DNA of 32,000 bases from Wigglesworthia glossinidia endosymbiont of Glossina brevipalpis (lineage in GTDB: Bacteria > Pseudomonadota > Gammaproteobacteria > Enterobacterales > Enterobacteriaceae). A program made the translations under genes and the position numbers. Shown one piece after another: positions 9,024 through 29,970 of the stretch. Position 1 is the stretch's first letter, and each line of letters opens with the position of its first letter. The notes beneath the pieces are model-generated. The model worked only from the letters and a program-made list of their open reading frames with translations. It was not told the DNA's origin and did no database searches. The stretch lies in assembly GCA_000008885.1 (NCBI GenBank), contig BA000021.3:180001-212000 (forward strand). Reading direction: 5' to 3'.

Positions 9024-9446
9024 AAATATATATCTCCAAAAATTAAAATAAATAATTATATTAAAAGTAAAGCAAGTACAAATATTTTATTTGATAAAAA
9101 TAAATATTGAATTTTTATTTAAAAATTTTTATTTAATTTATTTATACATAAAACATATTATTAATAATATAATTTATAATTAATGTTTATTATGAAAATA
9201 ACATAATTAAATATTTTTGTAAAAAGCTTTTATAAGTATAAAATATATATTTTATAAAATATTAAAATTAATAAATTTTATATTTAAATATTTTTAATAA
9301 TATTATTAATTATAAAATAGAAAATTAAAAAATATAAAATGAAACATTTAAAAAATTTTTAATACTTATATATGGTGTGTTATATTTTATAAAAAATGAT
9401 TTTTGTTTTAATGAAGTTTAAAAATTTTTAAATATTAAATATATTT

Positions 9447-12389: not shown

Positions 12390-13297
12390 ATGAAAAAAAA
12401 AAATATGTTGCAATAAGAATTGACGTAGATACTTTAATGGGGACTAAGTTAGGTGTACCTAACCTATGGGAAATTTTAAACAAAAAAAAAATAAAAGCAA
12501 CTTTTTTTTTTACTGTTGGCCCTGATAATATGGGAAGACATTTTTGGAGATTAATAAAACCAAAATTTTTATTTAAAATGTTTAGAATAAATCCTTTTAA
12601 AATTTATGGGTTAAACATATTAAGATCTGGATTTATAGGAAAAGGTAAAAATATAGGTAAAATATGTAAAAATGAAATAAAATCTGCATCAAAAGACCAT
12701 GAAATCGGATTGCATGCATGGGATCATTTTTCTTGGCAAACTTGGATAAATATGTTCAGTAAAAAAAAAATTATTAAACATATAAACCTAGGTAAAAATG
12801 CTTTGCAACACATCATAAAATATCCAGTTACATGCTTTGCTTCTCCAGGCTGGAGAACAAACGAATATGTATTACGTACATTAAAAAATAATTTTAATTT
12901 TTCATATAACAGTGACTGCAGAGGAAGCAATTTATTTTTTCCATATTTAGGTGATGGTAAAATTGGATCTTTGCAAATACCAGTGACACTTCCAACGTTT
13001 GACGAAGTTATTAACATAAAAACCACGATTAAAAAATATAATAGTTTTATTATAAAATTAATTAAAACACAATTAAATTTTTCTGTATATACTATTCACG
13101 CTGAAATAGAAGGAATGAAATATAAAAAAGAATTCGAAGAGTTTTTAAACATAGCAATAAACGAAGGAATTAATTTTTGCAGATTAAAAGATTTAATACC
13201 TAAAGAAATTGAAAATATACCAATATATAAAATAAATCATAAAACAATACCAGGAAGAGATGGATGGATTGCATATCAACAAAAAATAATAAAATAA
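12390..13297 (+). CDS. arnD: 4-deoxy-4-formamido-L-arabinose-phosphoundecaprenol deformylase ArnD; start codon and gene body are in different frames across an A11 tract
   Basis: The track ORF 12437..13297 (286 aa) matches E. coli ArnD (FFF.VGPDNMGRH.WRL.KP.FL.KM, HE.GLHAWDH, QIPVTLPT.DEV, YTIHAE.EG). The same frame upstream (12404-12436) encodes YVAIRIDVDTL, the conserved ArnD N-terminus, but has no start codon. ATG 12390 followed by A11 lies one frame off. Confidence 0.8.
12393..12403 (+). repeat. A11 homopolymer at the arnD frame break
   Basis: Counted directly: ATG(12390-12392) + 11 A + TATG. A tract of 12 or 9 A would join the ATG to the ArnD frame. Confidence 0.9.
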
Positions 13298-14952
13298 ATA
13301 AAATTAAATTTTCAATAACAATAATTGCATTTATTTTGTTGTATTATTTAATACCACTAAACTATAGGGATTTATGGCAACCAGATGAAACTAGATATGC
13401 AGAAATTAGCAGAGAGATGTTGCAAAATAAAAATTGGAGTATTCCATATTTATTGGATATAAGATATTTTGAGAAACCAATTTTTGGATATTGGATAAAT
13501 AGCATAAGTCAATTTTTTTTTGGTCATAATAATTTTTCAGTTAGATTTGGATCTTTTTTATTTACTTTATTTAGTGCTAATTTAATTTATTTATTTTCTA
13601 AAAAAATATGGAAAAATAAAATTTTATCTTTAAATTCAGTAATAATATTTTTATCCATTTTATTAGTATATATCATAGGTACATATTCTGTATTAGATTC
13701 AATAATATCTTTTTGGATTAATTTATCTATGATTTCGTTTTGGTTAGCAAGTACTTCAAAAGTTAAAAAATATAAAATAAAAAATTATATTATACTCGGA
13801 ATATCTATTGGTATAGGTTTTATAACAAAAGGATTTATATCTTTATTAATTCCTTTCATTAGCATTTTTATTTGGTTATTTTTAACAAAAATAAATATTA
13901 ATAAAACTATAATTCATTGTTTTTTTTCATTATTAATTTCTATTTTAATAATTTTCCCATGGATTTACAAAATATCTTATTTAGAGAAAGATTTTATTAG
14001 ATATTTTATTTTTATAGAGCATATACAAAGGTTTATTGGAGAAAATGCTCAACACAAATCTCCTTTTTGGTATTACTTTCCAATATTTATTATCGGATGT
14101 TTGCCTTGGTCTGGATTTTTATTTAGCACGTTAAATCTTGCTTGGAACACAAGAAAAAATAAAAAAATAGAATTTTATCTTTTACTGTGGATAATAGTTC
14201 AATTTTGTTTTTTTAGTATTTCTAAAGGAAAACTACCAACATATATTTTGCCTTGTTTTTTCCCTTTATCTATATTAATAGCAAAAAATATAGAAAAATG
14301 CAATTTAAAAAATAAAAAAAAATTGTTAAAAATAAATTCTATAATTAATACAATTGTGGGATCAACTTTATTGATTTTTATAATTTTGCATGAAAAATAT
14401 AAATTTTTTGGATGTTCTTTATATAATAAAAATGAATATTATAAACTTATATTATGCATATTTAGTATTTTTGTATGGATTTTTTTAAATTTATGTATAA
14501 TTTTTAATGATTTTAAATTTTGGAGAATTACATCTCTTAGTATTATTGGAATAGCATTTTTATTTGGATTATATGTTCCAGAAAAAATAATTTACGCTAA
14601 ACAACCACAATTATTTATTAAAGAAGTTTTTGATGATTTAGAATCTTCAGATTTTATTTTTTCTAACAACATAGGTTTATCTACTGCTATATCTTGGGAA
14701 ATAAAAAAGAATAATATTTTTATTTTTGAAAACAAAGGAGAACTAGAATATGGATTAAGTTATTTAGATTCTAAACATAGATTCATAAAAAAAGAAGATT
14801 TTAAAAATTGGTTGTCAAAAAATAAAGAAAAAAAAATATCTCTTGTTATGTTATTACCAGATAAACATTATAATTGGAAAAAATTTAATGTTCCAGAAAC
14901 AAAAAAGTTTTTTCAACATGAAAGATTAATTTTATTAAAATATAATTTTTAA
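13264..14952 (+). CDS. arnT: Undecaprenyl phosphate-alpha-4-amino-4-deoxy-L-arabinose arabinosyl transferase
   Basis: 562 aa polytopic membrane protein. LWQPDETRYAEISREM, RYFEKPI.GYWINSI, TKGF, FWYY.P, SKGKLPTYILPCF and GEL.YGL.Y.D...RF are collinear with E. coli ArnT. The ATG overlaps the arnD 3' end by 34 nt. Confidence 0.93.
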   Translation: MDCISTKNNKINKIKFSITIIAFILLYYLIPLNYRDLWQPDETRYAEISREMLQNKNWSIPYLLDIRYFEKPIFGYWINSISQFFFGHNNFSVRFGSFLFTLFSANLIYLFSKKIWKNKILSLNSVIIFLSILLVYIIGTYSVLDSIISFWINLSMISFWLASTSKVKKYKIKNYIILGISIGIGFITKGFISLLIPFISIFIWLFLTKININKTIIHCFFSLLISILIIFPWIYKISYLEKDFIRYFIFIEHIQRFIGENAQHKSPFWYYFPIFIIGCLPWSGFLFSTLNLAWNTRKNKKIEFYLLLWIIVQFCFFSISKGKLPTYILPCFFPLSILIAKNIEKCNLKNKKKLLKINSIINTIVGSTLLIFIILHEKYKFFGCSLYNKNEYYKLILCIFSIFVWIFLNLCIIFNDFKFWRITSLSIIGIAFLFGLYVPEKIIYAKQPQLFIKEVFDDLESSDFIFSNNIGLSTAISWEIKKNNIFIFENKGELEYGLSYLDSKHRFIKKEDFKNWLSKNKEKKISLVMLLPDKHYNWKKFNVPETKKFFQHERLILLKYNF

Positions 14953-14966
14953 TTAAATAAAAAGAT

Positions 14967-15579
14967 TTAATTTAATTTAAATAATTTTATATTAGTCCAT
15001 TTATTTAATATTTTTTTTGTAAAAAGTATTCCGTCTCTGCTTATAGAAGAAAATGTTAATACTTCTATATATATATTTTTTGTATGAGTTGTTTTTTCAA
15101 TATATTTTTTGAACAATGATAATTTTTTTTTTCTTTTTTCAAAATTTATTTTATCGGATTTGCTCAGTAATATTAAAACTGGAATTTTTAAATTAAAAGA
15201 TAAATATATTAATTTTTCATTAAATTCTGATACTGATCTTCTTATATCTTCTAATATAATTAGAATTTTTAAAGATTTGCGTGATTTAAAATAATCATCT
15301 AATAAATATTTAATTTTACTTTTTTTTTTTAGAAATTTTAGAATATCCAAATCCAGGTAAATCTATTATTCTTAATTTTTTATTCATGATAAACACATTA
15401 ATGAAATTTGTTCTCCCAGGTTTTTTACTGCTTATAGATATTTTTTTCTTATCGAATAAAGCGTTTATAGCCTTTGATTTTCCAGAATTAGAACGGCCAA
15501 AAAAAGCTATTTCTAATCCATTATCTTTTGGAAGATTAAATAAATTATTTGCACTTAACAAAAATTTTATATTATTCAT
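14967..15579 (-). pseudogene. engB: Ribosome-biogenesis GTPase EngB/YihA, split into two overlapping ORFs by a frameshift in an A11 tract (formally a pseudogene; may be rescued by slippage)
   Basis: ORF 15316..15579 carries G1 [16 protein letters not shown] and G3 DLPGFGY, then stops after KKKK. ORF 14967..15350 continues collinearly with E. coli EngB (..SLK.LIIL.DIR, then G4 LLSKSDK, then FSS). The two frames meet at the A11 tract (plus-strand T11, 15320-15330). Confidence 0.85.
15320..15330 (-). repeat. A11 homopolymer (T11 on the plus strand) at the engB frame break
   Basis: Counted directly. On the minus strand TCT + A11 + GTAA gives ...SKKKK*. A10 would read [15 protein letters not shown]..., which continues the EngB alignment. 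Confidence 0.9.
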
Positions 15580-15678
15580 TTTAATTATTTATATAATTTT
15601 AATATTATTAGTAATAAAAAATATTTTCAATAAATTAGAATGTTTTAAAAACCGTAAATAACAACCTAAAAATAACTT

Positions 15679-16113
15679 TTATTTTTTAAAATAAATACTA
15701 TTCATCCAACTATCTAGAATAATAACTGCTGATTCAGAATCAATCAATTTTTTTTTCAATCCTTTATATCCATATTTTTTGAATAAAACAGATTTTGCTT
15801 CAATCGTTGTTAAACGTTCGTCATGCATCATAACTGGCATAAAAAATTTATTTCTTAATTGTTTTGCAAATTTTTTGGCTTTAATTGTAGACGTCTGATA
15901 ACTTCCATCCATATTAAGAGGTAATCCTACTATAATATATTTTGGTTCCCATAATAATATTATGTTATTTATTTTTCCCCAGTTTGGCACTCCTTTTACA
16001 TAAGATACTGATTCTAATGGTTTAGAAGTATTTGTTTTCATTTGCCCAATCGCAACTCCTATATTTTTTGTTCCAAAATCAAATGATATTAATAAATTAT
16101 TTCTATACATCAT
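15679..16113 (-). CDS. ruvX: Putative pre-16S rRNA nuclease / Holliday-junction-resolvase-like protein YqgF
   Basis: 144 aa. The N-terminal FDFGTKNIGVAIG motif and DER.TT.EA match E. coli YqgF. ATGA overlap with the yqgE stop (16110-16113). In gshB-yqgE-yqgF synteny. Confidence 0.93.
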   Translation of the reverse strand: MMYRNNLLISFDFGTKNIGVAIGQMKTNTSKPLESVSYVKGVPNWGKINNIILLWEPKYIIVGLPLNMDGSYQTSTIKAKKFAKQLRNKFFMPVMMHDERLTTIEAKSVLFKKYGYKGLKKKLIDSESAVIILDSWMNSIYFKK

Positions 16114-16673
16114 GAGTGACCTATTTCACTAGATATATTTCTAATATCTATTCCTATAATTTTTGCAGATTCATACCATCTATCATAAATTGGAGTATTA
16201 AATAAAATTTTTAAGTTGGCTAAAGTTGTAATCCATGCATTATGTATAACTTCTTGTTCCAATTGCCCCTTTCCCCATTCAGAACACCCTAGAGCAACTA
16301 ATATTTTTTCTGGTTGAGAAGAAGTTCCTATTGTATTAAAAATATCATTTGATGTTGTAATTGTTATTTCTCTAGAAATATTTACGCTTGATTTAAAACT
16401 GTAACATGGAGAATGTAAAATAAAACTACGATCATCACTCAATGGTCCTCCAAATAGAACTGGATGATTTAATTTATCCATATCAATATTTTTTTCTATA
16501 TTTATTTTAAGTTTATTTAAAATATTTTTTATTGTATATTTATGAATAGGTTTATTTATTAAAATACCCATCGCTCCTTCTGTGCTATGTTGATATATAT
16601 AAACAACAGATCTCCTAAACAATGGATTTTTTATAGATGGCATTGCTATAAGAAAATGATGTTTTAAATTCAT
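16110..16673 (-). CDS. yqgE: UPF0301 protein YqgE
   Basis: 187 aa, the same length as E. coli YqgE. Its start [29 protein letters not shown] is almost collinear with E. coli [29 protein letters not shown]. Confidence 0.93.
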   Translation of the reverse strand: [187 protein letters not shown]

Positions 16674-16753
16674 ATATTTTATACTTTTATAATTAAAAAT
16701 TTATTTTAAATAATATTATTATACAATTTTTATTGATAAAAATTATAAAATAT

Positions 16754-17704
16754 TTAATGTTTTATGTTTAAAAGTTTCTCAATACTATCCAATAAAATTC
16801 CAGAAATAGATACCTTGTATACTGATTCAATTTCATTAATACCAGTAGGACTTGTGATATTAATTTCTGTTAAATAATTTCCTATTATATCTAATCCAAC
16901 AAAAATTAATCCCTTATCCTTAAGGAAGGATGAAATATTATTAGAAATTTCATAATCTATTTTCCTTAAAGGAAGAATATCAAAAGAAGCTCCAGCAGCT
17001 AAATTTCCACGTATTTCTTTATCATTTGGAATTCTTACAAGGCAGTATGGTAATGGAGAACCATTAATCATTATAATTCTTCTATCCCCATTTAAAATTT
17101 CTTTTATATACTCTTGTATTAAACAAAAAGAATTTCCATAATTAGTTAATTGATCGATTATTACAGAGACGTTTGGATCATTTTTTTTCACATAAAAAAC
17201 AGAATCTCCTCCCATTTTATTTATGGGTTTTAATATAATATCTCCAAATTTTTCTTGAAACGAATAAATAGCTTTTTTGCTGCAACTTATTAAAGTTTTA
17301 GGAGAGTATTTAAATGATAAAGTAGATATCTTTTCATTATAATCCCTTAGGCTTTTAGGTTTGTTAATAATAAGAACTCCAAAATTTTCTATATGCTCTA
17401 AAATATATGTAATATATAAAAATTCTATATCAAACGGAGGATCTTTTCTCATTAAGATTACGTCTAATTCTTTTAGATTAATCGTATATTTTTTTTTAAA
17501 TGAATACCATTTTTTTTCATCATATTTAACTGATATTAAGTATGAATTTGCGTATACTTCTCCAACTTCATAATATATATCTTTCATTTCTATATAATAT
17601 AAAAAATAATTTCTTTTTTGTGCTTCTAGCATGATAGAAAAACTTGTATCTTTTTTTATTTTAATAGAAGAAATAGGATCCATTATTATTCCTAATTTTA
17701 TCAA
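16754..17704 (-). CDS. gshB: Glutathione synthetase (ATP-grasp)
   Basis: Collinear with E. coli GshB (VILMRKDPPFD.EF.Y.TYILE, SLRD.NEK, IILKP...MGG.S.F, PYCL.RIP....RGNLAAG, KGLIFVGLDIIG..LTEIN.TSPT). The track ORF starts at TTG 17737. I prefer TTG 17704, which gives MIKLGIIMDP (E. coli MIKLGIVMDP) and has GAGAGG 9 nt upstream. Confidence 0.9.
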   Translation of the reverse strand: MIKLGIIMDPISSIKIKKDTSFSIMLEAQKRNYFLYYIEMKDIYYEVGEVYANSYLISVKYDEKKWYSFKKKYTINLKELDVILMRKDPPFDIEFLYITYILEHIENFGVLIINKPKSLRDYNEKISTLSFKYSPKTLISCSKKAIYSFQEKFGDIILKPINKMGGDSVFYVKKNDPNVSVIIDQLTNYGNSFCLIQEYIKEILNGDRRIIMINGSPLPYCLVRIPNDKEIRGNLAAGASFDILPLRKIDYEISNNISSFLKDKGLIFVGLDIIGNYLTEINITSPTGINEIESVYKVSISGILLDSIEKLLNIKH

Positions 17705-17723
17705 AATTATAGACCTCTCAAAA

Positions 17724-18451
17724 TTAAAAATCTCCAAAATACATTTGTAAAATAGAAACTATTGATATTACGCTTGTTTCTGTTCTTAAAATTCTTGGAC
17801 CAAATTTAATCTTATTAAAATTATTTTTTTCTACATGAAATACTTCTTCTTTAGAAAGACCACCTTCTGGTCCAATCAATAAATTAATATTTTTTATTTT
17901 TTGATTTATTTCTTTTATTTTTTTTTCAGAATAAGGATCGGCATAAATTTTAAAAGAAGTGCTTTTTGTATCACACCATTTATATATGGATATTGGATCA
18001 TTTATTTTTAACAAAAAATTTCTTCCGCATTGCTGAGAAGATTGAATAATGATTTTTTCCCAACGATCAATTATTTTATTTAAATTTTTTTTATTTAAAA
18101 ATTCGTTGGAACGTGAAGAAAATAATGGAGTTAATGTATGTATTCCAAGCTCAACAGATTTTTGTACTAAAAAATCCATGCTTTTTTTATTACATAAAAC
18201 TTGCCCTAAATTTATTTTCAAAGTAGATTCGACATATTTGTGTATTTGATGCATTAAGAATATATATGTATTTTTATTTTTATATTTTAAAATTTTTCCT
18301 AGGAATTCTTTTTCTTTTCCATTAAATATCAAAACAAGCATTCCTTTTTTTTTTCTTAAAGAAAATCTTAAATGAGAAGTAGAATCTTCTGAAAGTAAAA
18401 TTATTTGTTTTTTTTTAATAAAAAATTAACATATATTCTAGGAATTTTCAT
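17724..18451 (-). CDS. rsmE: 16S rRNA (uracil1498-N3)-methyltransferase RsmE; the first 16 codons are out of frame with the body across an A9 tract
   Basis: The track ORF 17724..18341 matches E. coli RsmE from about residue 40 (LGQV....K..F..QKS.ELG....TPLFS, QCGRN, LLIGPEGGLS..E, GPR.LRTET). ATG 18451 encodes MKIPRIYV (E. coli MRIPRIYH) and stops at 18403..18401. The body frame is open from 18425. With one extra A the product is 242 aa, against 243 aa in E. coli. Confidence 0.85.
18408..18416 (-). repeat. A9 homopolymer (T9 on the plus strand) at the rsmE frame break
   Basis: Counted directly. Minus strand reads TTA TTA AAA AAA AAC AAA TAA. With A10 it reads ...LLKKKQIILLSEDSTSHLRFSLRKKKGMLVLIFNG, which is continuous with the main ORF. 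Confidence 0.9.
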
Positions 18452-18752
18452 ATTTTTATAAAAAACAATTGTCAAATTTTTTAAAATTAAAAAATTACTG
18501 AATTATAATTCTAACATATTTTTAAATATAAAATTGAAAATAAATTAAATTATTAATTTTTTATTTATTATTAATATAATATTAAGTATTAATTTAAAAT
18601 TTTTACATATAAAATAATATTATATAATTATAAATTTTATATAGAAAATAATAATATATTTTTTATAAAAAATTATATTTATAATTTTATTATATATTAA
18701 TAATAAAATTTTTATAATTTATATTTTATATGTTAAAGGAAAAATTTTTCTT

Positions 18753-21347
18753 ATGAAAAAAGAATACTCTTGCAAAGAAATAGAAAGATTTGTACAAAAA
18801 CATTGGGAAATTAACGACACTTTTAAAGTTTTAGAGGATTCCAAAAAAGATAAATATTATTGTGTTTCAATGATGCCATATCCATCTGGAAAATTACATA
18901 TGGGTCATGTCAGAAATTATGTATTGGGAGATGTAATAGCAAGGTATCAAAGAATGTTGGGAAAAAACGTTTTACATCCAATTGGTTGGGATGCTTTTGG
19001 CTTACCAGCTGAAACAGCAGCAATAAATAATAAAATATCTCCAGAAAAATGGACTATTTCAAGCATTGAATATATGAAAAATCAATTGAAATTATTAGGA
19101 TGCAGTTATGATTGGAGTAGAGAAATAATAACATGTGATCCTAAATATTATAAATGGGAGCAATTGTTGTTTACTAAATTATACAATAAAAACAAAGCAT
19201 ATAAAAAAAAATCAATAGTTAATTGGTGTCCTAAAGATAAAACAGTTCTTGCAAACGAACAAGTAATCGATAATTTATGTTGGCGCTGCAGTTCTAATAT
19301 AGAAATGAAAAAAATTTTTCAATGGTTTATCAAAATAACTGATTATGCAGATGAATTGCTAAATGATTTAAATGATTTGAAACTTTGGCCTAAAAAAGTA
19401 AAAGTTATGCAAAGAAATTGGATAGGAAAGTCTAAAGGAATAGACGTTTTATTTCATATAAAAGATACAAATGAAAAAATTTTAATATATGTTAGTAAAT
19501 TAGAAATATTTATGGGTATTACATTCATAGTAATATCTAAAGAACATAAATTAATAAAATTTATAGAAAATAAACTTCCAAGTATTGCAAAATTAATTAA
19601 AAATTATAATAATGAAAAAACTTTGGAACTAAATTTAAGAAAAAAAACAAAAGATGGGATTTTTACATCTTTATTTGCAATACATCCAATATCAAAAAAA
19701 ATTCTTCCTATATGGATTTCCAACTTTTTTTTCACTAATAATGATATTTATCAATCTATAGCAGCAATACCTGCTTACAACAAGAATGAACTAGACTTTG
19801 CTAAAAAATATAATTTACCTATAAGGTATGTTATAAAAGATTACTTTGAAAAAATAATAGATTTTAAAAAATATAATAATTTAAAAGAAGGTATATTATT
19901 TAACTCTAATATATTTAATGGATTAAATTTAAAAAATGGCTATGATAGAATATCAAAATTTTTAATTAGTAATAAAATTGGAAAACGATCAACTCATTAT
20001 AAATTAAGAGATTGGTGTATTTCTAGGCAAAGATATTGGGGAGCTCCAATTCCTGTTTTAATAACAAAAGAAAACAAAATATTAGTTGTTTCAGAAAATG
20101 AATTGCCTGTTATTCTTCCTAAAGCAAAAAACAATAATATAATACATTCTTTAAATTCTTATAAAGATTGGATTTATGTATTAAATGATAACAAATTAGT
20201 AAAGAGAGAAGTTGATACTTTTGATACATTTATGGAATCTTCTTGGTATCTTCATAGATATACTTGTACAAAATATACAAAAGATATTTTGGATCCTAAT
20301 GCAACAAACTATTGGTTTCCAGTAGATCAATATATTGGAGGAATTGAACATGCTACAATGCATCTTTTGTATTTAAGATTCTACCATAAAATATTGAGAG
20401 ATATGAATTTTGTTAAATGCGATGAACCAGTAAATAGATTGTTATGTCAAGGAATGGTTTTATCTGATACTTTTTATTATTTTTCTAAATCTGGAAATAA
20501 AATATGGACTTCTCCAAAAAATAAAAATTTTGAAAGAAATAAAGATAATAAAATTATTAATGCAATAGATTCATTAGGAAATAAATTAACTCATATTGGA
20601 ATGAGTAAGATGTCTAAATCAAAGAATAATGGGGTAGATCCTCAAGGCATTATTAATAAATATGGATCAGATACTCTTCGTTTATTTATAATGTTTGCAG
20701 CTCCTCCAGAATTATCTTTGGAATGGAGCGATAAAGGAATAATTGGAGCAAATCGTTTTATTAAAAAATTATGGAAAATAACATATAATTATTTAAATTT
20801 AAAAAAAAATAATAATTATGTTTTTTATAAAAAACTAAAAGAACAAGATAATATTTTATTAGAAAAATCTTTTTATGTAATAAATAAAGTAACAAAAGAT
20901 ATAGATAAAAATCAAACTTTTAATACTGCTATCGCAGAAATTATGAAACTTACTAATCATCTGAATTCTTATATTAACAAGAACGAATACAATAATATAT
21001 CAATTATAAAAAAAGTATTAATGATTATTATACGTTTATTATATCCTTTTATACCTCATGTTTGTTTTGTTTTATGGAATGAAATTAATAAAAATAATGA
21101 TATAGATAAAACAAAATGGCCGAAAATAAAAATGCCATTTATAAAAAATAAGAAAAAAAATATAGTTGTCCAAATAAATGGAAAACTAAAGACAGTTATA
21201 TCATTTGATATAAGTTGTAATGAATTTTTAATTAAAAAATGTGTTATAGAAAATAACAAAATAAAAAATCTGTTAAATAAAAAAAAAATAAAAAACATTA
21301 TATATGTTAAAAATAAAATAATTAATATAGTATTAGATGATAAATAA
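18753..21347 (+). CDS. leuS: Leucine--tRNA ligase
   Basis: 864 aa. HIGH-type motif (PYPSGKLHMGHVRNY) and KMSKS present (MSKMSKSKNNG). AGGA upstream. First gene of the leuS-lptE-holA-nadD block. Confidence 0.97.
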   Translation: MKKEYSCKEIERFVQKHWEINDTFKVLEDSKKDKYYCVSMMPYPSGKLHMGHVRNYVLGDVIARYQRMLGKNVLHPIGWDAFGLPAETAAINNKISPEKWTISSIEYMKNQLKLLGCSYDWSREIITCDPKYYKWEQLLFTKLYNKNKAYKKKSIVNWCPKDKTVLANEQVIDNLCWRCSSNIEMKKIFQWFIKITDYADELLNDLNDLKLWPKKVKVMQRNWIGKSKGIDVLFHIKDTNEKILIYVSKLEIFMGITFIVISKEHKLIKFIENKLPSIAKLIKNYNNEKTLELNLRKKTKDGIFTSLFAIHPISKKILPIWISNFFFTNNDIYQSIAAIPAYNKNELDFAKKYNLPIRYVIKDYFEKIIDFKKYNNLKEGILFNSNIFNGLNLKNGYDRISKFLISNKIGKRSTHYKLRDWCISRQRYWGAPIPVLITKENKILVVSENELPVILPKAKNNNIIHSLNSYKDWIYVLNDNKLVKREVDTFDTFMESSWYLHRYTCTKYTKDILDPNATNYWFPVDQYIGGIEHATMHLLYLRFYHKILRDMNFVKCDEPVNRLLCQGMVLSDTFYYFSKSGNKIWTSPKNKNFERNKDNKIINAIDSLGNKLTHIGMSKMSKSKNNGVDPQGIINKYGSDTLRLFIMFAAPPELSLEWSDKGIIGANRFIKKLWKITYNYLNLKKNNNYVFYKKLKEQDNILLEKSFYVINKVTKDIDKNQTFNTAIAEIMKLTNHLNSYINKNEYNNISIIKKVLMIIIRLLYPFIPHVCFVLWNEINKNNDIDKTKWPKIKMPFIKNKKKNIVVQINGKLKTVISFDISCNEFLIKKCVIENNKIKNLLNKKKIKNIIYVKNKIINIVLDDK

Positions 21348-21858
21348 TTTGATAAAAAAAATAAAATTATTTTTTTTTTGCCTTCTTCCTATAGGATGTT
21401 CTTCTTTAAAAGAACAAAATTATTTTAATGATAAAATAAGTATTATTTATTTAAATAATAACAATTTAAATGATTTAGAAACAAAAATAATAAATAGTAA
21501 ATTCTTATTTTATGGAATTAATATTTTAAATCTAACAAATGACAAACAAAATCCAATTATAAGAATTATTGATAAATCAGAACATGTAAAAAAAATAGGA
21601 TCTTTTGATGAAAAAAATATATTTAATATTGATTACGAAATAACAATGTCAATAAGTGCAGAATTTATTTTAAATAAAAATAAAAAATTTTTAATTTCAT
21701 CTACGATAAATCGTAATTACAGCGATAATAACTTTTCTTCATTTCATAGATATGAAGAAAAAAATATTTTTTTTTCAGAATTATACTCTGAAGCTATAAC
21801 AAATTTGGCGAGAAAATGCATATTTTTAATATATAAAAATAATTTTAAATTAACATAA
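21337..21858 (+). CDS. lptE: LPS-assembly lipoprotein LptE (RlpB), diverged
   Basis: 173 aa. Signal peptide ends in a lipobox-like LLPIGC. The C-terminal two thirds are loosely collinear with E. coli LptE. Position between leuS and holA is conserved. Overlaps the leuS 3' end by 11 nt. Confidence 0.72.
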   Translation: MINNLIKKIKLFFFCLLPIGCSSLKEQNYFNDKISIIYLNNNNLNDLETKIINSKFLFYGINILNLTNDKQNPIIRIIDKSEHVKKIGSFDEKNIFNIDYEITMSISAEFILNKNKKFLISSTINRNYSDNNFSSFHRYEEKNIFFSELYSEAITNLARKCIFLIYKNNFKLT

Positions 21859-21871
21859 TAAATGATTAGAA

Positions 21872-22915
21872 ATGTTTTATATGGAAAATTTATCAAAAAA
21901 TAAAAATAAAAAAAAACTTCTTATAAAAAGAAATAAGCATTATATTTTATTTGGAAAAGAAAATTTTTTATTACAAATGAAAACTAAGTCAATATTAAAA
22001 AAAATAAAAAAAAATTTTACTTTAATTTATAAATTTGATATAGATTTAACGACAGATTGGAATTTTTTGATAAAAAAAGTAGAAAACTTAGATTTATTTT
22101 ATAAAGAGTTAATTATTATATTGATCTTGCCAAAAATCATAACCGAAAAAATAAATAAAAACATTTATACTATTGTTTCTTTTGCAAAAGAAAATATAAC
22201 ATTAATAATTAATATCTTTGATATTAATGATATAAACAAAGAAAAATTTTGGTTTTTTAAAATAAAAAGAAATATAACAGTAATAAATTGTAACATTAAA
22301 AACGAAAAACAATTTTTATTTTTTATAAAAGAAATTTTAATATATTTTAAAATAAATGTTGATTCTGATTCAAAAAAATTTTTAATTAAAAATTTTAGAA
22401 AAAATATAAGTTTTACAATAAAATTTTTAAAAAAATTAAGTGTTTTATATGATAAAAAAGAGATAAAAATAAATAATATTAAAAATTTATTAGATAATTA
22501 TATAATACAAACTCCAAAAAAACTAATTAACGAAATTTTTTTAAAAAATCATAAACAATCAATATTTATTTTGAAAAAAATGAAAGTTCAAAATTTATTT
22601 GATCCTATTATAATTTTAAGAAATATACAAAATAATATAATATATTTAATACATATCAAATATAAAAATAAAATTAATAACTTTTATTTAAATTTTTTTC
22701 TATATATAAACAAAAATTATGAAAAAAATAAACATTTAATTATAAATTTTTCTAAAAACACCAGTATATATCAATTGCATGAATCAATAAATTTGATTTT
22801 GTTTTTAGAAATACAAATTAAAAAAAATTGTAAAAGTAAAATTGTTTGGCATGTTTTTGAAAAAATTATTTTAATATTATGTGGATTCAAAACTCCTAAA
22901 ATAAAAAAAAAATAA
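21872..22915 (+). CDS. holA: DNA polymerase III delta subunit, highly diverged
   Basis: 347 aa against 343 in E. coli. Short anchors remain (YILFGKENFLLQ vs YLLLGNDPLLLQ; TDWNFL vs TDWNAI). Conserved position between lptE and nadD. Its stop overlaps the nadD ATG (TAATG). Confidence 0.75.
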   Translation: MFYMENLSKNKNKKKLLIKRNKHYILFGKENFLLQMKTKSILKKIKKNFTLIYKFDIDLTTDWNFLIKKVENLDLFYKELIIILILPKIITEKINKNIYTIVSFAKENITLIINIFDINDINKEKFWFFKIKRNITVINCNIKNEKQFLFFIKEILIYFKINVDSDSKKFLIKNFRKNISFTIKFLKKLSVLYDKKEIKINNIKNLLDNYIIQTPKKLINEIFLKNHKQSIFILKKMKVQNLFDPIIILRNIQNNIIYLIHIKYKNKINNFYLNFFLYINKNYEKNKHLIINFSKNTSIYQLHESINLILFLEIQIKKNCKSKIVWHVFEKIILILCGFKTPKIKKK

Positions 22916-23550
22916 TGAAAAAATCTATTCTTACTGCTTTTTACGGAGGAACATTTGATCCAATACATAACGGTCATATAAAATCTGCGATAGCTTTAGC
23001 AAAGTTAATACATTTAAATCGTATTATTTTAATACCAAACGGTTCTCCCGTGCATAAACCAATACCTGTTGCATCTGCAGAAGATAGGATAAATATGATT
23101 AATCTTGCTATTTCTGAAATATCAGAAGATATATTTGAAATTGATTATAGAGAAATTAATAATAAAATACCTTCTTATACTATAAATACTTTCGAAAATT
23201 TGAGAAAAGAATATGGACCAAAAGCACCTCTGGGTTTTATTTTAGGACAAGACTCATTTATGAAATTACATACATGGTATAGAGGATATGATATATTAAA
23301 ATTTTGTCATCTTTTAATATGTGCAAGATCTAATAATATGATTAATCTAAAAAAAATAAAGTTTAAATTTATAGATCCAAAAATATTGCATTATATTCCT
23401 TTTGGTTTAATTTATTATGCTTTCACTCCAATAATAAAAATTTCTTCTAGAAATATTAGATTAAGATATAAATTTGGAATTTCTTGTAATGGATTAATAT
23501 CTTCATCTGTTCAAAAATATATAAATAAAAAAAATATATATAAAAGATAA
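22915..23550 (+). CDS. nadD: Nicotinate-nucleotide adenylyltransferase
   Basis: 211 aa. Contains GGTFDPIHNGH (the (H/T)xGH nucleotidyltransferase motif) and the C-terminal ISSRNIR motif. Confidence 0.93.
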   Translation: MKKSILTAFYGGTFDPIHNGHIKSAIALAKLIHLNRIILIPNGSPVHKPIPVASAEDRINMINLAISEISEDIFEIDYREINNKIPSYTINTFENLRKEYGPKAPLGFILGQDSFMKLHTWYRGYDILKFCHLLICARSNNMINLKKIKFKFIDPKILHYIPFGLIYYAFTPIIKISSRNIRLRYKFGISCNGLISSSVQKYINKKNIYKR

Positions 23551-23740
23551 ATAGGAATTTTTATAATGTTATTATTAAGAATTTTTATAAAAATTAAAAA
23601 AATTATATTATAAAATAATTAAATAAATAATTTAAATTTTATTAATTTTAAAAAAAACAAAATTTTTATAAAAAATTAAAAATAATCTTTCAAAATTTAT
23701 ATATTTAATTTTTTATTAAAAAATTTGATACAAAAATATT

Positions 23741-25596
23741 ATGAAAAAAATAAATAAATATTTTAATAAACGTGAAACAGAATCAAAAATATTTTTGCAA
23801 AGAATAATGATATCTTTTTTTTTATTATATTTTTAACTGTGATATTAATTTCTAATCTATATTATCTTCAAATATTTTGTTTTTCTATGTATCAAACCAA
23901 ATCTAATGATAATCGAATAAAAATAATTTCTATTCCTCCATCAAGAGGCACTATTTCAGATAGAAACGGAAATTTATTAGCATTGAATCGTACTATTTAT
24001 CAATTAGAAATTAATTTAAAACAAGTTGAAAATATCGAAAAAACTATAAAAGAACTAAAATCAGTAGTTGACTTAAATCAATCAGATATTTTTTATTTTG
24101 AAAAAGAAAGAAAAAAATATAATTATTTAAATAAATTTTTAATAAAATCAAATCTTACAGATATTCAACATGCTAGGTTTTCTATAAATCAATATAGATT
24201 TCCTGGAGTGCATGTCAAAAATTATCAAACAAGGTATTATCCTTATGGAGAGGATATAGCACATGTAATTGGATATGTATCTCAAATAAGCAATAAAGAC
24301 ATGATATGCTTAAGTTACAACAAAGATCTTTTAAATTATTATAAAACAAAATCGGTAGGAAAAATAGGAATAGAAAAATTTTATGAAAAAAAATTACATG
24401 GACAACCTGGATTTAAAGAAGTAGAGGTAAACAGCAAAGGTAAAATAATAAGACAACTTAGATTTTTTCCTCCTCAACCAGGAAAAAATATAATATTAAC
24501 ATTAGATTTAAATATACAAAAATATATTAAAAATTTAATATCTTCAATTCGCGCAGCAGTAGTAGTTATAGATCCAAGAGACGGAGGAATATTAGCTTTG
24601 GTATCTAATCCAAGTTACGATCCTAATATATTTGTAAATGGAATTTCTAACAAAAAATATTTAGAATTATTAACAAATTTAGATCGTCCATTTATAAATA
24701 GAACAACACAAGGGACTTATCCTCCTGCTTCTACAATAAAGCCATATATTTTAATTTCTGCATTACATTCAGGAATAATTAATACAAACTTTTTTTTGTT
24801 TGATCCAGGTTGGTGGAAATTACCTGGATCAGAAAAAAAATATAGAGATTGGAAAAAATGGGGCCATGGTTATTTAAATATAACAAAAGCTATAGAAGAA
24901 TCTTCTGATACTTTTTTTTATCAAATTGCATATAATATGGGAATAGATAGGTTGTCAGAATGGATGAAAAAATTTGGATATGGAACATATACTGGTATTG
25001 ATATTTCAGAAGAAAGCATAGGTGTGATGCCGAATAGAGATTGGAAATTAAAATACATAAAAGATCCTTGGTATCAAGGAGATACAATTTCTGTAGGAAT
25101 AGGACAAGGATATTGGACAGCAACTCCTATTCAAATATCAAAATCATTAATGACACTAATAAATAATGGATTAGTAAAAAATCCTCATTTATTATACGGA
25201 ATTTTAGAAAAAGATAATAAATTTATTCCATACTTTCAATCTAAATATTTACAAATAGGAGACCCGAGATCTAATTTTTGGGAAATAGTAAAAAATGGAA
25301 TGTATGGAGTGGCAAATCATTCTAATGGAACAGCATATAAAAATTTTTATGATGCAAAATATAAAATAGCTGCTAAATCTGGAACAGCTCAATTATTTAG
25401 TTTACAGCCAAACGAAATATACGATCCTAAAAAATTGTCTACTCAATTTAAAGATCATAAACTGATGACTGCATTTGCTCCGTTTAATAACCCTACCGTA
25501 TGTATTGTAGTTATTTTAGAAAACGGCGGAGACTATCTTTCTGCTGGAGAAATTTCAAGAAAAATATTAGATTATATTTTATTAAAAAAATCATAA
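23741..25596 (+). CDS. mrdA: Peptidoglycan D,D-transpeptidase PBP2; the N-terminal cytoplasmic tail and first half of the membrane anchor are out of frame with the body (T9 tract)
   Basis: The track ORF (GTG 23839..25596) is collinear with E. coli PBP2 from inside the membrane anchor onward (NLY.LQI, NRIK..PI.PSRG.I.DRNG, STIKP, EESSDTFFYQ, KSGTAQ). ATG 23741 encodes MKKINKYFNKRETESKIFLQRIMISFFLLYF*, which is collinear with E. coli MKLQNSFRDYTAESALFVRRALVAFLGILLL. The frames differ by one nt. Confidence 0.88.
23815..23823 (+). repeat. T9 homopolymer at the mrdA frame break
   Basis: Counted directly (ATA TCT + T-run). With T10 the reading is ...RIMISFFFIIFLTVILISNLYYLQI, which gives one continuous TM helix. 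A nearby T5 run (23830-23834) is an alternative shift site. Confidence 0.8.
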
Positions 25597-28051: not shown

Positions 28052-28702
28052 ATGAATAAAGTTAATTTTAGAATATTAGGATTACAAAAATATCAAGATA
28101 TATATTATATAATGCAAAAATTTATTACTTGCTTAAAAAAAAACAATATAAATGAAATATGGTTGTTAGAACATTATCCAGTATTTACTCAAGGTAATTC
28201 TGATAACTTTAATAAAAAATATATATTTAACATTCCTGTCGTTAAAACTGATAGAGGAGGCCATATGACATTTCATGGGCCTGGCCAAAAAATTATATAT
28301 TTTTTATTAAATATTAAAAATTTAAATATCAAAATAAGTAAATTAATTTTTTATTTAGAAAATATTATTATTTCTACTTTATCTTATTTTAAAATAAATT
28401 CTTATTCTATAAAAAATTCTCCAGGAGTGTATGTTGACAAAAAAAAAATTTGTTCAATAGGATTGAGAATAAAAGATGGTTATTCTTTGCATGGTTTAGC
28501 ATTAAATGTTGATATGGATTTATATCCTTTTTCGCATATACATCCTTGTGGAGATAAAAATATAAAAATGACTCAAATAAGAGATTTAATATCAAATATT
28601 AATTTAGAAAAATTAAATACACAAATAATAAATAATTGTAAAAAATTTTTAATGATGAATAATTTTGAAATAAATTTTTTAAACTCAATTAAAATATTTT
28701 AA
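28052..28702 (+). CDS. lipB: Octanoyltransferase
   Basis: 216 aa. IWLLEHYPVFTQG, DRGG..T.HGPGQ, KKICSIGLRI..G.S.HGLALNV.MDL and HPCG are collinear with E. coli LipB. Confidence 0.93.
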   Translation: MNKVNFRILGLQKYQDIYYIMQKFITCLKKNNINEIWLLEHYPVFTQGNSDNFNKKYIFNIPVVKTDRGGHMTFHGPGQKIIYFLLNIKNLNIKISKLIFYLENIIISTLSYFKINSYSIKNSPGVYVDKKKICSIGLRIKDGYSLHGLALNVDMDLYPFSHIHPCGDKNIKMTQIRDLISNINLEKLNTQIINNCKKFLMMNNFEINFLNSIKIF

Positions 28703-29760: not shown

Positions 29761-29970
29761 TTAAATAGTAGTAACATGAGCAGCTGAAGGGCCTTTAGCC
29801 CCATTAGTAATCTCAAATTCTACACGTTGACCTTCTGCAAGAGTTTTAAAACCATTGCTTTGAATAGCAGAAAAATGTACAAATACATCTTTACTACCAT
29901 CTTCTGGAGTAATAAACCCAAATCCTTTAGATTCGTTAAACCATTTTACATTACCTTTAATTTTAGACAT
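29761..29970 (-). CDS. cspE: Cold-shock-domain protein CspE
   Basis: 69 aa. It differs from my recollection of E. coli CspE at only about 5 positions. RNP1 KGFGFI and RNP2 VFVHF are present. AAGGTAAG Shine-Dalgarno motif upstream. It neighbours lipA as in E. coli. Confidence 0.96.

Follow-up and report, generated by a model that had tools for sequence, protein, structure and literature searches.

A frame break conserved in mrdA, with three others confined to one lineage, suggests recoding at long A/T homopolymers in Wigglesworthia

In the insect endosymbionts Buchnera and Blochmannia, frameshifts in poly(A) or poly(T) tracts are corrected by transcriptional slippage, and, according to the summary given in PMC3017870 (which cites Tamas 2008 and Wernegreen 2010), some of these frameshifts are shared by different species with no decay of the gene. 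Genes corrected in this way are routinely counted as intact in those symbionts, at four to eight per genome (PMC3017870; PMC4389277). The Shigella flexneri gene mxiE consists of two open reading frames (ORFs) joined by a non-templated U in a U run, as was shown experimentally (Penno et al. 2005, as related in PMC1088944), and dnaX undergoes transcriptional slippage on A9 in Thermus thermophilus and −1 ribosomal frameshifting on A AAA AAG in Escherichia coli (PMC1088944). For the tsetse symbiont Wigglesworthia, Rio et al. 2012 reported that 6 of 11 pseudogenes in the symbiont of Glossina m. morsitans (Wgm) had just one or two indels, and suggested in general terms that homopolymer correction might occur, but did not name arnD, engB, rsmE or mrdA (PMC3280448). 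Baranov et al. 2005 excluded genomes such as that of Wigglesworthia from their search for functional sites of nine A or nine T (PMC1088944), and our literature search found no paper linking Wigglesworthia mrdA to a frameshift. Here we analyze a stretch of 32,000 nucleotides (nt), hereafter the window, from the genome of Wigglesworthia glossinidia of Glossina brevipalpis (Wgb; 697,724 bp in total; positions 180,001 to 212,000 of BA000021.3). The GC content of the window is 21.4%, and four of its genes, mrdA, arnD, engB and rsmE, each lose their reading frame at a long A/T homopolymer.

The break in mrdA, which encodes the transpeptidase PBP2, is common to four lineages. Besides the window, these are the syntenic locus of Wgm (CP003315; L002), a Logan assembly of G. 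palpalis type (L003), whose PBP2 is identical to the protein in a G. palpalis gambiensis assembly, and a second Logan assembly with 92.8% nucleotide identity to Wgm (L004). The comparison at mrdA therefore brings together two Sanger genomes and two Logan short-read assemblies of sequencing runs; a fifth lineage, seen through LeuS on 3.2-kb contigs (L005 and L006), covers none of the four break sites. The tsetse hosts of the four lineages represent three subgenera that split 50 to 80 million years (My) ago. Since LeuS is only 59% identical between lineages and synonymous sites are saturated at that divergence, we measured divergence by protein-identity ratios and not by the ratio of nonsynonymous to synonymous substitution rates (dN/dS).

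In the window, mrdA occupies 23741..25596 on the plus strand, with its first 27 codons in one frame and the body of the gene in the −1 frame. The two frames meet at a T9 tract (23815..23823, plus strand; codons 26 to 28) inside the PBP2 transmembrane helix, which would be in frame as T10; a 0-frame stop at 23834–23836 ends a product of 31 amino acids (aa). The T10-corrected protein matches NF008061 at positions 1–615 of 634 and scores 715 bits with TIGR03423, for which the cutoff is 455, and its alignment with full-length E. coli PBP2 (8tj3_C) begins at residue 4 and runs gaplessly through the helix that bears the break. Both the frame break and its context, ATATC-T9-ATTAT, are identical in all four lineages, and the length of the junction is invariant. 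On the 5′ side of the tract, the variable alignment columns favor codon position 3 of the ATG frame (14/24 versus 15/50; p = 0.019), and on the 3′ side they favor position 3 of the −1 frame (26/45 versus 16/92; p = 2.6e-6). This switch of the third-position bias at the tract indicates purifying selection on both mrdA pieces, each in its own frame. Pairs of lineages are 73 to 88% identical in PBP2, among the highest values of the 18 proteins compared.

Because four assemblies from two technologies agree on T9, the mrdA break is no artefact, and its age and conservation mean that it does not mark a decaying pseudogene. As judged from these alignments, the break appears to be ancient, and full-length PBP2 must come from recoding at the tract. 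Wigglesworthia protein clusters held no full-length PBP2 (about 618 aa) that could derive from transcript assembly, and a protein search with the N-terminal 228 aa of the corrected PBP2 returned fragments from free-living enterobacteria only and no further Wigglesworthia lineages. Under standard decoding, mrdA of all four lineages encodes a conserved peptide of 31 to 35 aa with a basic N-terminus and a hydrophobic tail (23741–23836 in Wgb).

The other three breaks are specific to Wgb. In arnD (12390..13297, plus strand), which encodes the Ara4FN-undecaprenyl-phosphate deformylase, the frame is lost right after the start codon (ATG, 12390–12392) at an A11 tract (12393..12403, plus strand) that is in frame only as A12 (+1) or A9 (−2); the 0-frame stop at 12414–12416 leaves the product MKKKNMLQ. 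The A12 version gives an N-terminal length equal to that of the sister lineages and matches NF011923 at positions 3–294 of 294 (387 bits; cutoff 382). Its alignment with the ArnD structure 8t0j starts at residue 4, takes in the RIDVDT motif and has no gap at the break. At this site the sister lineages carry Lys codons in in-frame runs of A7 or A6 plus A8, and their ArnD is intact (298 aa; Wgm and L003).

The gene for the ribosome-assembly GTPase EngB (yihA/ysxC; 14967..15579, minus strand) is split in mid-gene, just past the G3 motif DLPGFGY, at an A11 of the sense strand (T11 on the plus strand; 15320..15330) that would be in frame as A10 (−1) or A13 (+2). Corrected EngB matches TIGR03598 at positions 2–179 of 186 (171 bits; cutoff 124) and shows no gap across the break when aligned with E. 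coli EngB (1pui). Wgm and L003 each have an A9 in frame at the orthologous site, and EngB of L003 is intact with 213 aa. In Wgm, engB is broken at another tract, an A10 at L002:6774–6783 (minus-strand gene) that needs to be A11. In rsmE (yggJ; 17724..18451, minus strand), the gene for the 16S rRNA U1498 methyltransferase, the frameshift falls at codons 13 to 15, in a sense-strand A9 (18408..18416, minus strand) that would be in frame as A10 (+1), and the 0-frame stop lies at 18401–18403. The corrected RsmE matches NF008692 over its entire length (1–246 of 246; 211 bits; cutoff 196) and aligns gaplessly, 1–241 to 1–241, with E. coli RsmE (4e8b). There is no tract at this site in the sister lineages, only runs of 4, and RsmE is intact there with 242 aa (Wgm and L003). 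A frameshift conserved across lineages is therefore found in mrdA, but not in arnD or rsmE, which are intact in the sisters, and engB is broken at separate sites in two lineages and whole in a third.

A regular-expression census of the whole window was used to place these breaks among all long runs, and it agreed exactly with an earlier note on this DNA in finding two runs of at least 11 nt only, A11 at 12393–12403 and T11 at 15320–15330, each of which breaks a gene (arnD and engB, respectively). The same note had placed the rsmE and mrdA breaks on 9-mers, and a one-base correction of each tract indeed restores the frame. It was also right that all four disruptions in the window sit in long A/T homopolymers: beyond the four genes, tblastn with sister-lineage proteins and full-length NCBIfam matches revealed no disrupted gene in the window, and purA is incomplete merely because the window ends, not because its frame is broken. 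A fifth hidden break was suspected at an A10 at the holA/nadD junction, examined and rejected. There are exactly nine 10-mers, all of them coding and in frame (12482–12491, an A10 on the plus strand in arnD; 12502–12511; 12761–12770; 15123–15132; 18345–18354; 21279–21288; 21370–21379; 22903–22912; and 28439–28448), and seven of the nine are sense-strand poly(A). Their count, coordinates and frame were as the note had them, but its statement that they lie in intact ORFs was loose, since five of the nine lie in broken genes. Its comparison with Buchnera and Blochmannia is apt for this genome, which belongs to an obligate, AT-rich insect endosymbiont and shows a single tract indel per broken gene and 39 coding tracts of at least 9 nt within 32 kb.

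Among the 32 9-mers of the window, 28 are coding. Taking all runs of at least 9 nt together, 39 of 43 (90.7%) are coding, compared with a coding fraction of 90.1% for the window, and 32 of those 39 are sense-strand poly(A). Such runs are no rarer in coding than in non-coding DNA of the window, which matches the genome-wide result of Baranov et al. 2005. By length, frame breaks affect 2/2 of the 11-mers, 0/9 of the 10-mers and 2/28 of the coding 9-mers. The probability that four of four random indels land in tracts of at least 9 nt is 2.5e-8, and that both 11-mers are among the four broken of 39 tracts is 0.008; pooled over four Wigglesworthia loci, 3/3 runs of at least 11 nt are broken versus 1/19 10-mers (p = 0.0026). 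This position bias is expected from replication slippage and sequencing error alike and alone does not separate the interpretations.

The genes arnD, engB and rsmE together make up 7.8% of the coding sequence and contain 5/9 of the in-frame 10-mers (p = 2.8e-4), and being so rich in tracts they are large mutational targets for slippage; in the sister lineages, arnD and engB are again rich in tracts. The turnover of long tracts is fast, as only 5/32 of those in Wgb reach 9 nt in the two sister lineages as well, and only two have an unchanged length, the mrdA T9 being one of them. In L003, lipB is split at an A11 (L003:19424–19434) that needs one extra A. Over the window, L002 and L003, five of six frameshift events need one more nucleotide, the tract being one base short, and the Wgb engB break alone needs −1 or +2. 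This excess could stem from a bias toward deletions, or from polymerase slippage rescuing such breaks better when it inserts a base; a sample of six is too small to tell.

Taken together, these observations make it probable, in our judgment, that the four lesions are real and arose by slippage during replication, that the genes work through unfaithful reading of the same tracts and that the bypass in mrdA is both obligatory and old. In a repair-poor, low-GC endosymbiont genome, runs of about 9 nt or longer would frequently gain or lose one base, and above about 10 nt the growth of a tract is probably mainly due to slippage rather than to substitution. If tracts beyond about 10 nt lengthen by slippage, a new 11-mer would be frame-breaking by origin. 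RNA polymerase may in turn slip on the weak rU:dA or rA:dT hybrid and generate a mixed mRNA pool, in which the fraction with an extra or a missing base would encode the full-length protein, and ribosomes that shift by −1 at A AAA AAA or U UUU UUU could contribute. The T9 break in mrdA would then be older than the split of the three tsetse subgenera and would have been kept since, with full-length PBP2 depending on recoding, and the same process would have struck the tract-rich genes arnD, engB and rsmE more recently and in a single lineage. We infer both the production of full-length protein and the role of the polymerase, rather than the ribosome, as the main corrector.

The ribosome might instead restore the frame by itself, through a −1 shift at U UUU UUU/A or at A AAA AAA, or else by sliding on poly(A) Lys codons, and we hold this to be possible, though somewhat unlikely. 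All three window tracts that require +1 offer X XXY YYZ heptamers in the 0 frame, namely T TTT TTT and T TTT TTA in mrdA and A AAA AAA in arnD and rsmE, and Baranov et al. inferred no selection against slippage-prone runs in Wigglesworthia (PMC1088944). At mrdA, however, the stimulators of programmed −1 frameshifting are absent, and low efficiency is expected: RNAalifold predicted no pairs over the 121 nt from the tract onward in the four lineages, single-sequence folds 3′ of the tract were no better than shuffles (z-scores of −0.07 to +0.85), and there was no GGAGG-like (Shine-Dalgarno-like) element upstream of it. In addition, engB would need a +1 ribosomal shift or two extra bases, neither of which −1 slippage on poly(A) gives. 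As polymerase slippage needs only the run and no stimulatory structure, it is the simplest mechanism for mrdA.

It is also conceivable, if rather doubtful, that arnD, engB and rsmE are really in frame and that their breaks are homopolymer miscalls in the 2002 Sanger consensus. All three are confined to the Wgb assembly and include the two longest tracts of the window, and no independent assembly of the Wgb strain is on record; the protein clusters of Wgb LeuS, MrdA, ArnD and RsmE have a single member each, and we found no second assembly of the strain among them. On the other hand, like lesions occur in other assemblies (the Wgm engB A10 and the L003 lipB A11) and all nine 10-mers are in frame, and for mrdA a miscall is ruled out by the T9 found in four independent assemblies from two technologies.

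A true loss of function must likewise be considered, in which arnD, rsmE and perhaps engB were lately inactivated, as a first step of erosion with no rescue; we think this unlikely. Tract indels are the usual first inactivating event in endosymbionts (PMC3017870), the three breaks are lineage-specific, and the three genes are unusually rich in long tracts. We compared the ratios of Wgb-to-sister over sister-to-sister protein identity, which are 0.83 for arnD, 0.88 for engB, within 0.83 to 0.88 for mrdA as well, and 0.74 for rsmE, the lowest of the four broken genes. As these values lie inside the range of 14 unbroken genes (0.62 to 0.92), they give no sign of relaxed constraint, and arnD and engB in particular have no excess divergence. 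Each of the four genes carries one lesion, a single indel, mended by a one-base change, in a gene that is otherwise full length, and is kept in every lineage, so that neither multiple lesions nor accelerated divergence nor loss in the sisters is seen. The downstream ORFs of 115 to 286 codons are still open, although a random codon would be a stop with a probability of 0.093. Model bacteria cannot do without the ribosome-assembly GTPase EngB, whose gene all lineages have kept, and mrdA shows that such a break can last for tens of millions of years without decay.

The earlier note had argued that the affected proteins otherwise keep their catalytic motifs, and NCBIfam equivalog matches and alignments to solved homologues show genes that are otherwise full length with their motifs in place. 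It took this to speak for ongoing selection and against long-standing pseudogenes, which is strongly upheld only for mrdA, by the T9 shared among four lineages and the selection in both frames; the breaks of arnD, engB and rsmE are specific to Wgb. The data for these three genes are as compatible with a very recent mutation, or with a miscall in the homopolymer, as with continued function.

That truncated proteins from internal starts are the functional products, and the upstream pieces relics, seems improbable to us, even though this is how the public records depict three of the four genes. arnD is recorded with 286 aa (BAC24307; Swiss-Prot Q8D340) from an internal ATG at 12437 and yggJ (rsmE) with 205 aa (BAC24313) from an internal ATG at 18341, and mrdA is modeled with 585, 603, 590, 583 or 500 aa. 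The Wgb model of mrdA (585 aa) starts at a GTG (23839) only 2 nt past the 0-frame stop, where termination-reinitiation is conceivable, and L003 has an ATG just 3′ of the tract. Wgm mrdA, by contrast, has no canonical in-frame start 3′ of the break; its models of 603, 583 or 500 aa begin at ATC, ATT or a Met more than 100 residues further in, two of them being non-canonical starts. The upstream pieces stay orthologue-like in their own frame, and what the public models drop is conserved: MKIPRIY in RsmE, RIDVDT in ArnD, which is encoded upstream of the internal ATG, and the cytoplasmic tail of PBP2 together with half of its membrane anchor. The third-position-biased variation in the upstream frame of mrdA, its invariant junction and its gapless alignment with the E. 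coli protein also speak against internal starts, which are inapplicable to engB with its split in mid-gene. Public annotations hide the breaks of arnD, rsmE and mrdA as N-terminal truncations.

A minority of in-frame genome copies might supply the protein, as symbionts of this kind have a high genome copy number and their long tracts turn over quickly, but this too is improbable, because all four assemblies give T9 in mrdA and a beneficial in-frame allele should have swept in at least one lineage over 50 to 80 My.

Several points weigh against correction by polymerase slippage as set out above. For each of the four genes, rescue is our inference, and the arnD, engB and rsmE breaks are known from one 2002 Sanger assembly only. 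T9, A9 and A11 are, in the right frame, classical slippery heptamers for a −1 shift as well, which would allow correction by the ribosome. From A/T runs being as frequent in coding as in non-coding DNA it has been argued that Wigglesworthia may not slip (Baranov et al. 2005, PMC1088944), and the window repeats that equality. That the mrdA T9 is conserved is also partly expected, since the run encodes Phe-Phe-Phe in a membrane helix, and an in-frame T9 in rodA is equally conserved. Nevertheless, the conserved mrdA break argues for some recoding in Wigglesworthia despite the equality of run frequencies.

A bolder version of recoding at the tracts, to which we give tentative and less than even credence, is that the mrdA T9 is a selected and obligatory recoding signal rather than a tolerated lesion. 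All PBP2 would have been made for 50 to 80 million years by way of a non-templated U or a −1 shift amid the codons of the membrane anchor, which would provide a low dose of the enzyme in a regulator-poor genome together with the conserved 31- to 35-aa membrane peptide, and many hidden, "N-terminally truncated" coding sequences of Wigglesworthia would depend on polymerase infidelity. If true, this would contradict the earlier inference that there is no slippage in Wigglesworthia.

The remaining genes of the window were assigned from NCBIfam, Pfam context and tblastn. A minus-strand block of lon, clpX, clpP, tig, a major facilitator superfamily transporter gene and nadA is followed by a plus-strand block of arnC, arnA, arnD and arnT, a minus-strand block of engB, ruvX, yqgE, gshB and rsmE, a plus-strand block of leuS (18753–21347, its product 100% identical to LeuS of the G. 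brevipalpis symbiont), lptE, holA, nadD, mrdA, rodA, dacA, lipB and lipA, and a last minus-strand block of cspE, rlmB and purA, which is cut off by the window end. Scans of the window with Rfam and for tRNAs gave no matches. The arn cluster (start region viewed at 9024–9446) opens with arnC right after nadA in all lineages; at this locus, the only one viewed, arnB is not upstream of arnC, compared with the E. coli order arnBCADTEF. The yqgE gene (YqgE/AlgH family; 16110–16673) has a full-length equivalog match in Wgb and is missing from the ruvX-gshB gap of about 130 to 190 nt in Wgm and L003. The spacer between the divergent genes rsmE and leuS (18452–18752) is extremely AT-rich over about 300 nt. 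A CspE-like cold-shock protein of 69 aa (29761–29970) has 100% amino acid identity between Wgb and both sister lineages, whereas the proteins neighboring it are only 33 to 77% identical between lineages.

Slippage-dependent expression in Wigglesworthia would extend this phenomenon to a third major genus of insect symbionts, one that matters medically, as tsetse flies rely on Wigglesworthia for their fertility. The mrdA T9 offers an anciently conserved and easily assayed test locus in an essential cell-wall gene, which bears directly on the published suggestion that the RNA polymerase of Wigglesworthia does not slip (Baranov et al. 2005, PMC1088944). For annotation, the arnD (including Swiss-Prot Q8D340), rsmE/yggJ and mrdA entries in all Wigglesworthia records are N-terminally truncated and omit catalytic or membrane-anchor residues, which implies that the pseudogene counts given for these genomes, 8 and 11, leave out breaks near 5′ ends.

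Compared with the systems described at the outset, mrdA resembles dnaX in having a homopolymer or slippery heptamer in an essential gene and two products from one locus. It differs in that standard reading gives the long product of dnaX and recoding the short one, whereas in mrdA standard reading gives a 31- to 35-aa peptide and recoding is needed for the enzyme, and in that the internal Shine-Dalgarno and hairpin stimulators of dnaX are absent at mrdA. The likeness to mxiE is that overlapping ORFs are joined into a longer protein, the base concerned being a U and the direction +1, as for the mrdA T9; mxiE is, however, a virulence-plasmid regulator with proven slippage, and mrdA is a housekeeping cell-wall gene with a putative mechanism. 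Unlike the cases in Blochmannia and Buchnera, those described here concern another genus and other genes (mrdA, engB, arnD, rsmE and lipB), are known from DNA and not from cDNA, and in three of the four are masked by annotation. Their density is also different, with 4 in 32 kb here versus 4 to 8 per whole Blochmannia genome (PMC4389277). What they share with both symbionts is an AT-rich, obligate insect endosymbiont as carrier and a single indel in a tract of 9 to 12 nt within a gene that is otherwise intact; likewise, some of the breaks are conserved and others are lineage-specific or recurrent in the same gene, ytfM there and engB here. The finding thus points to a known habit of endosymbionts, reading through tracts, in a new organism and a new gene.

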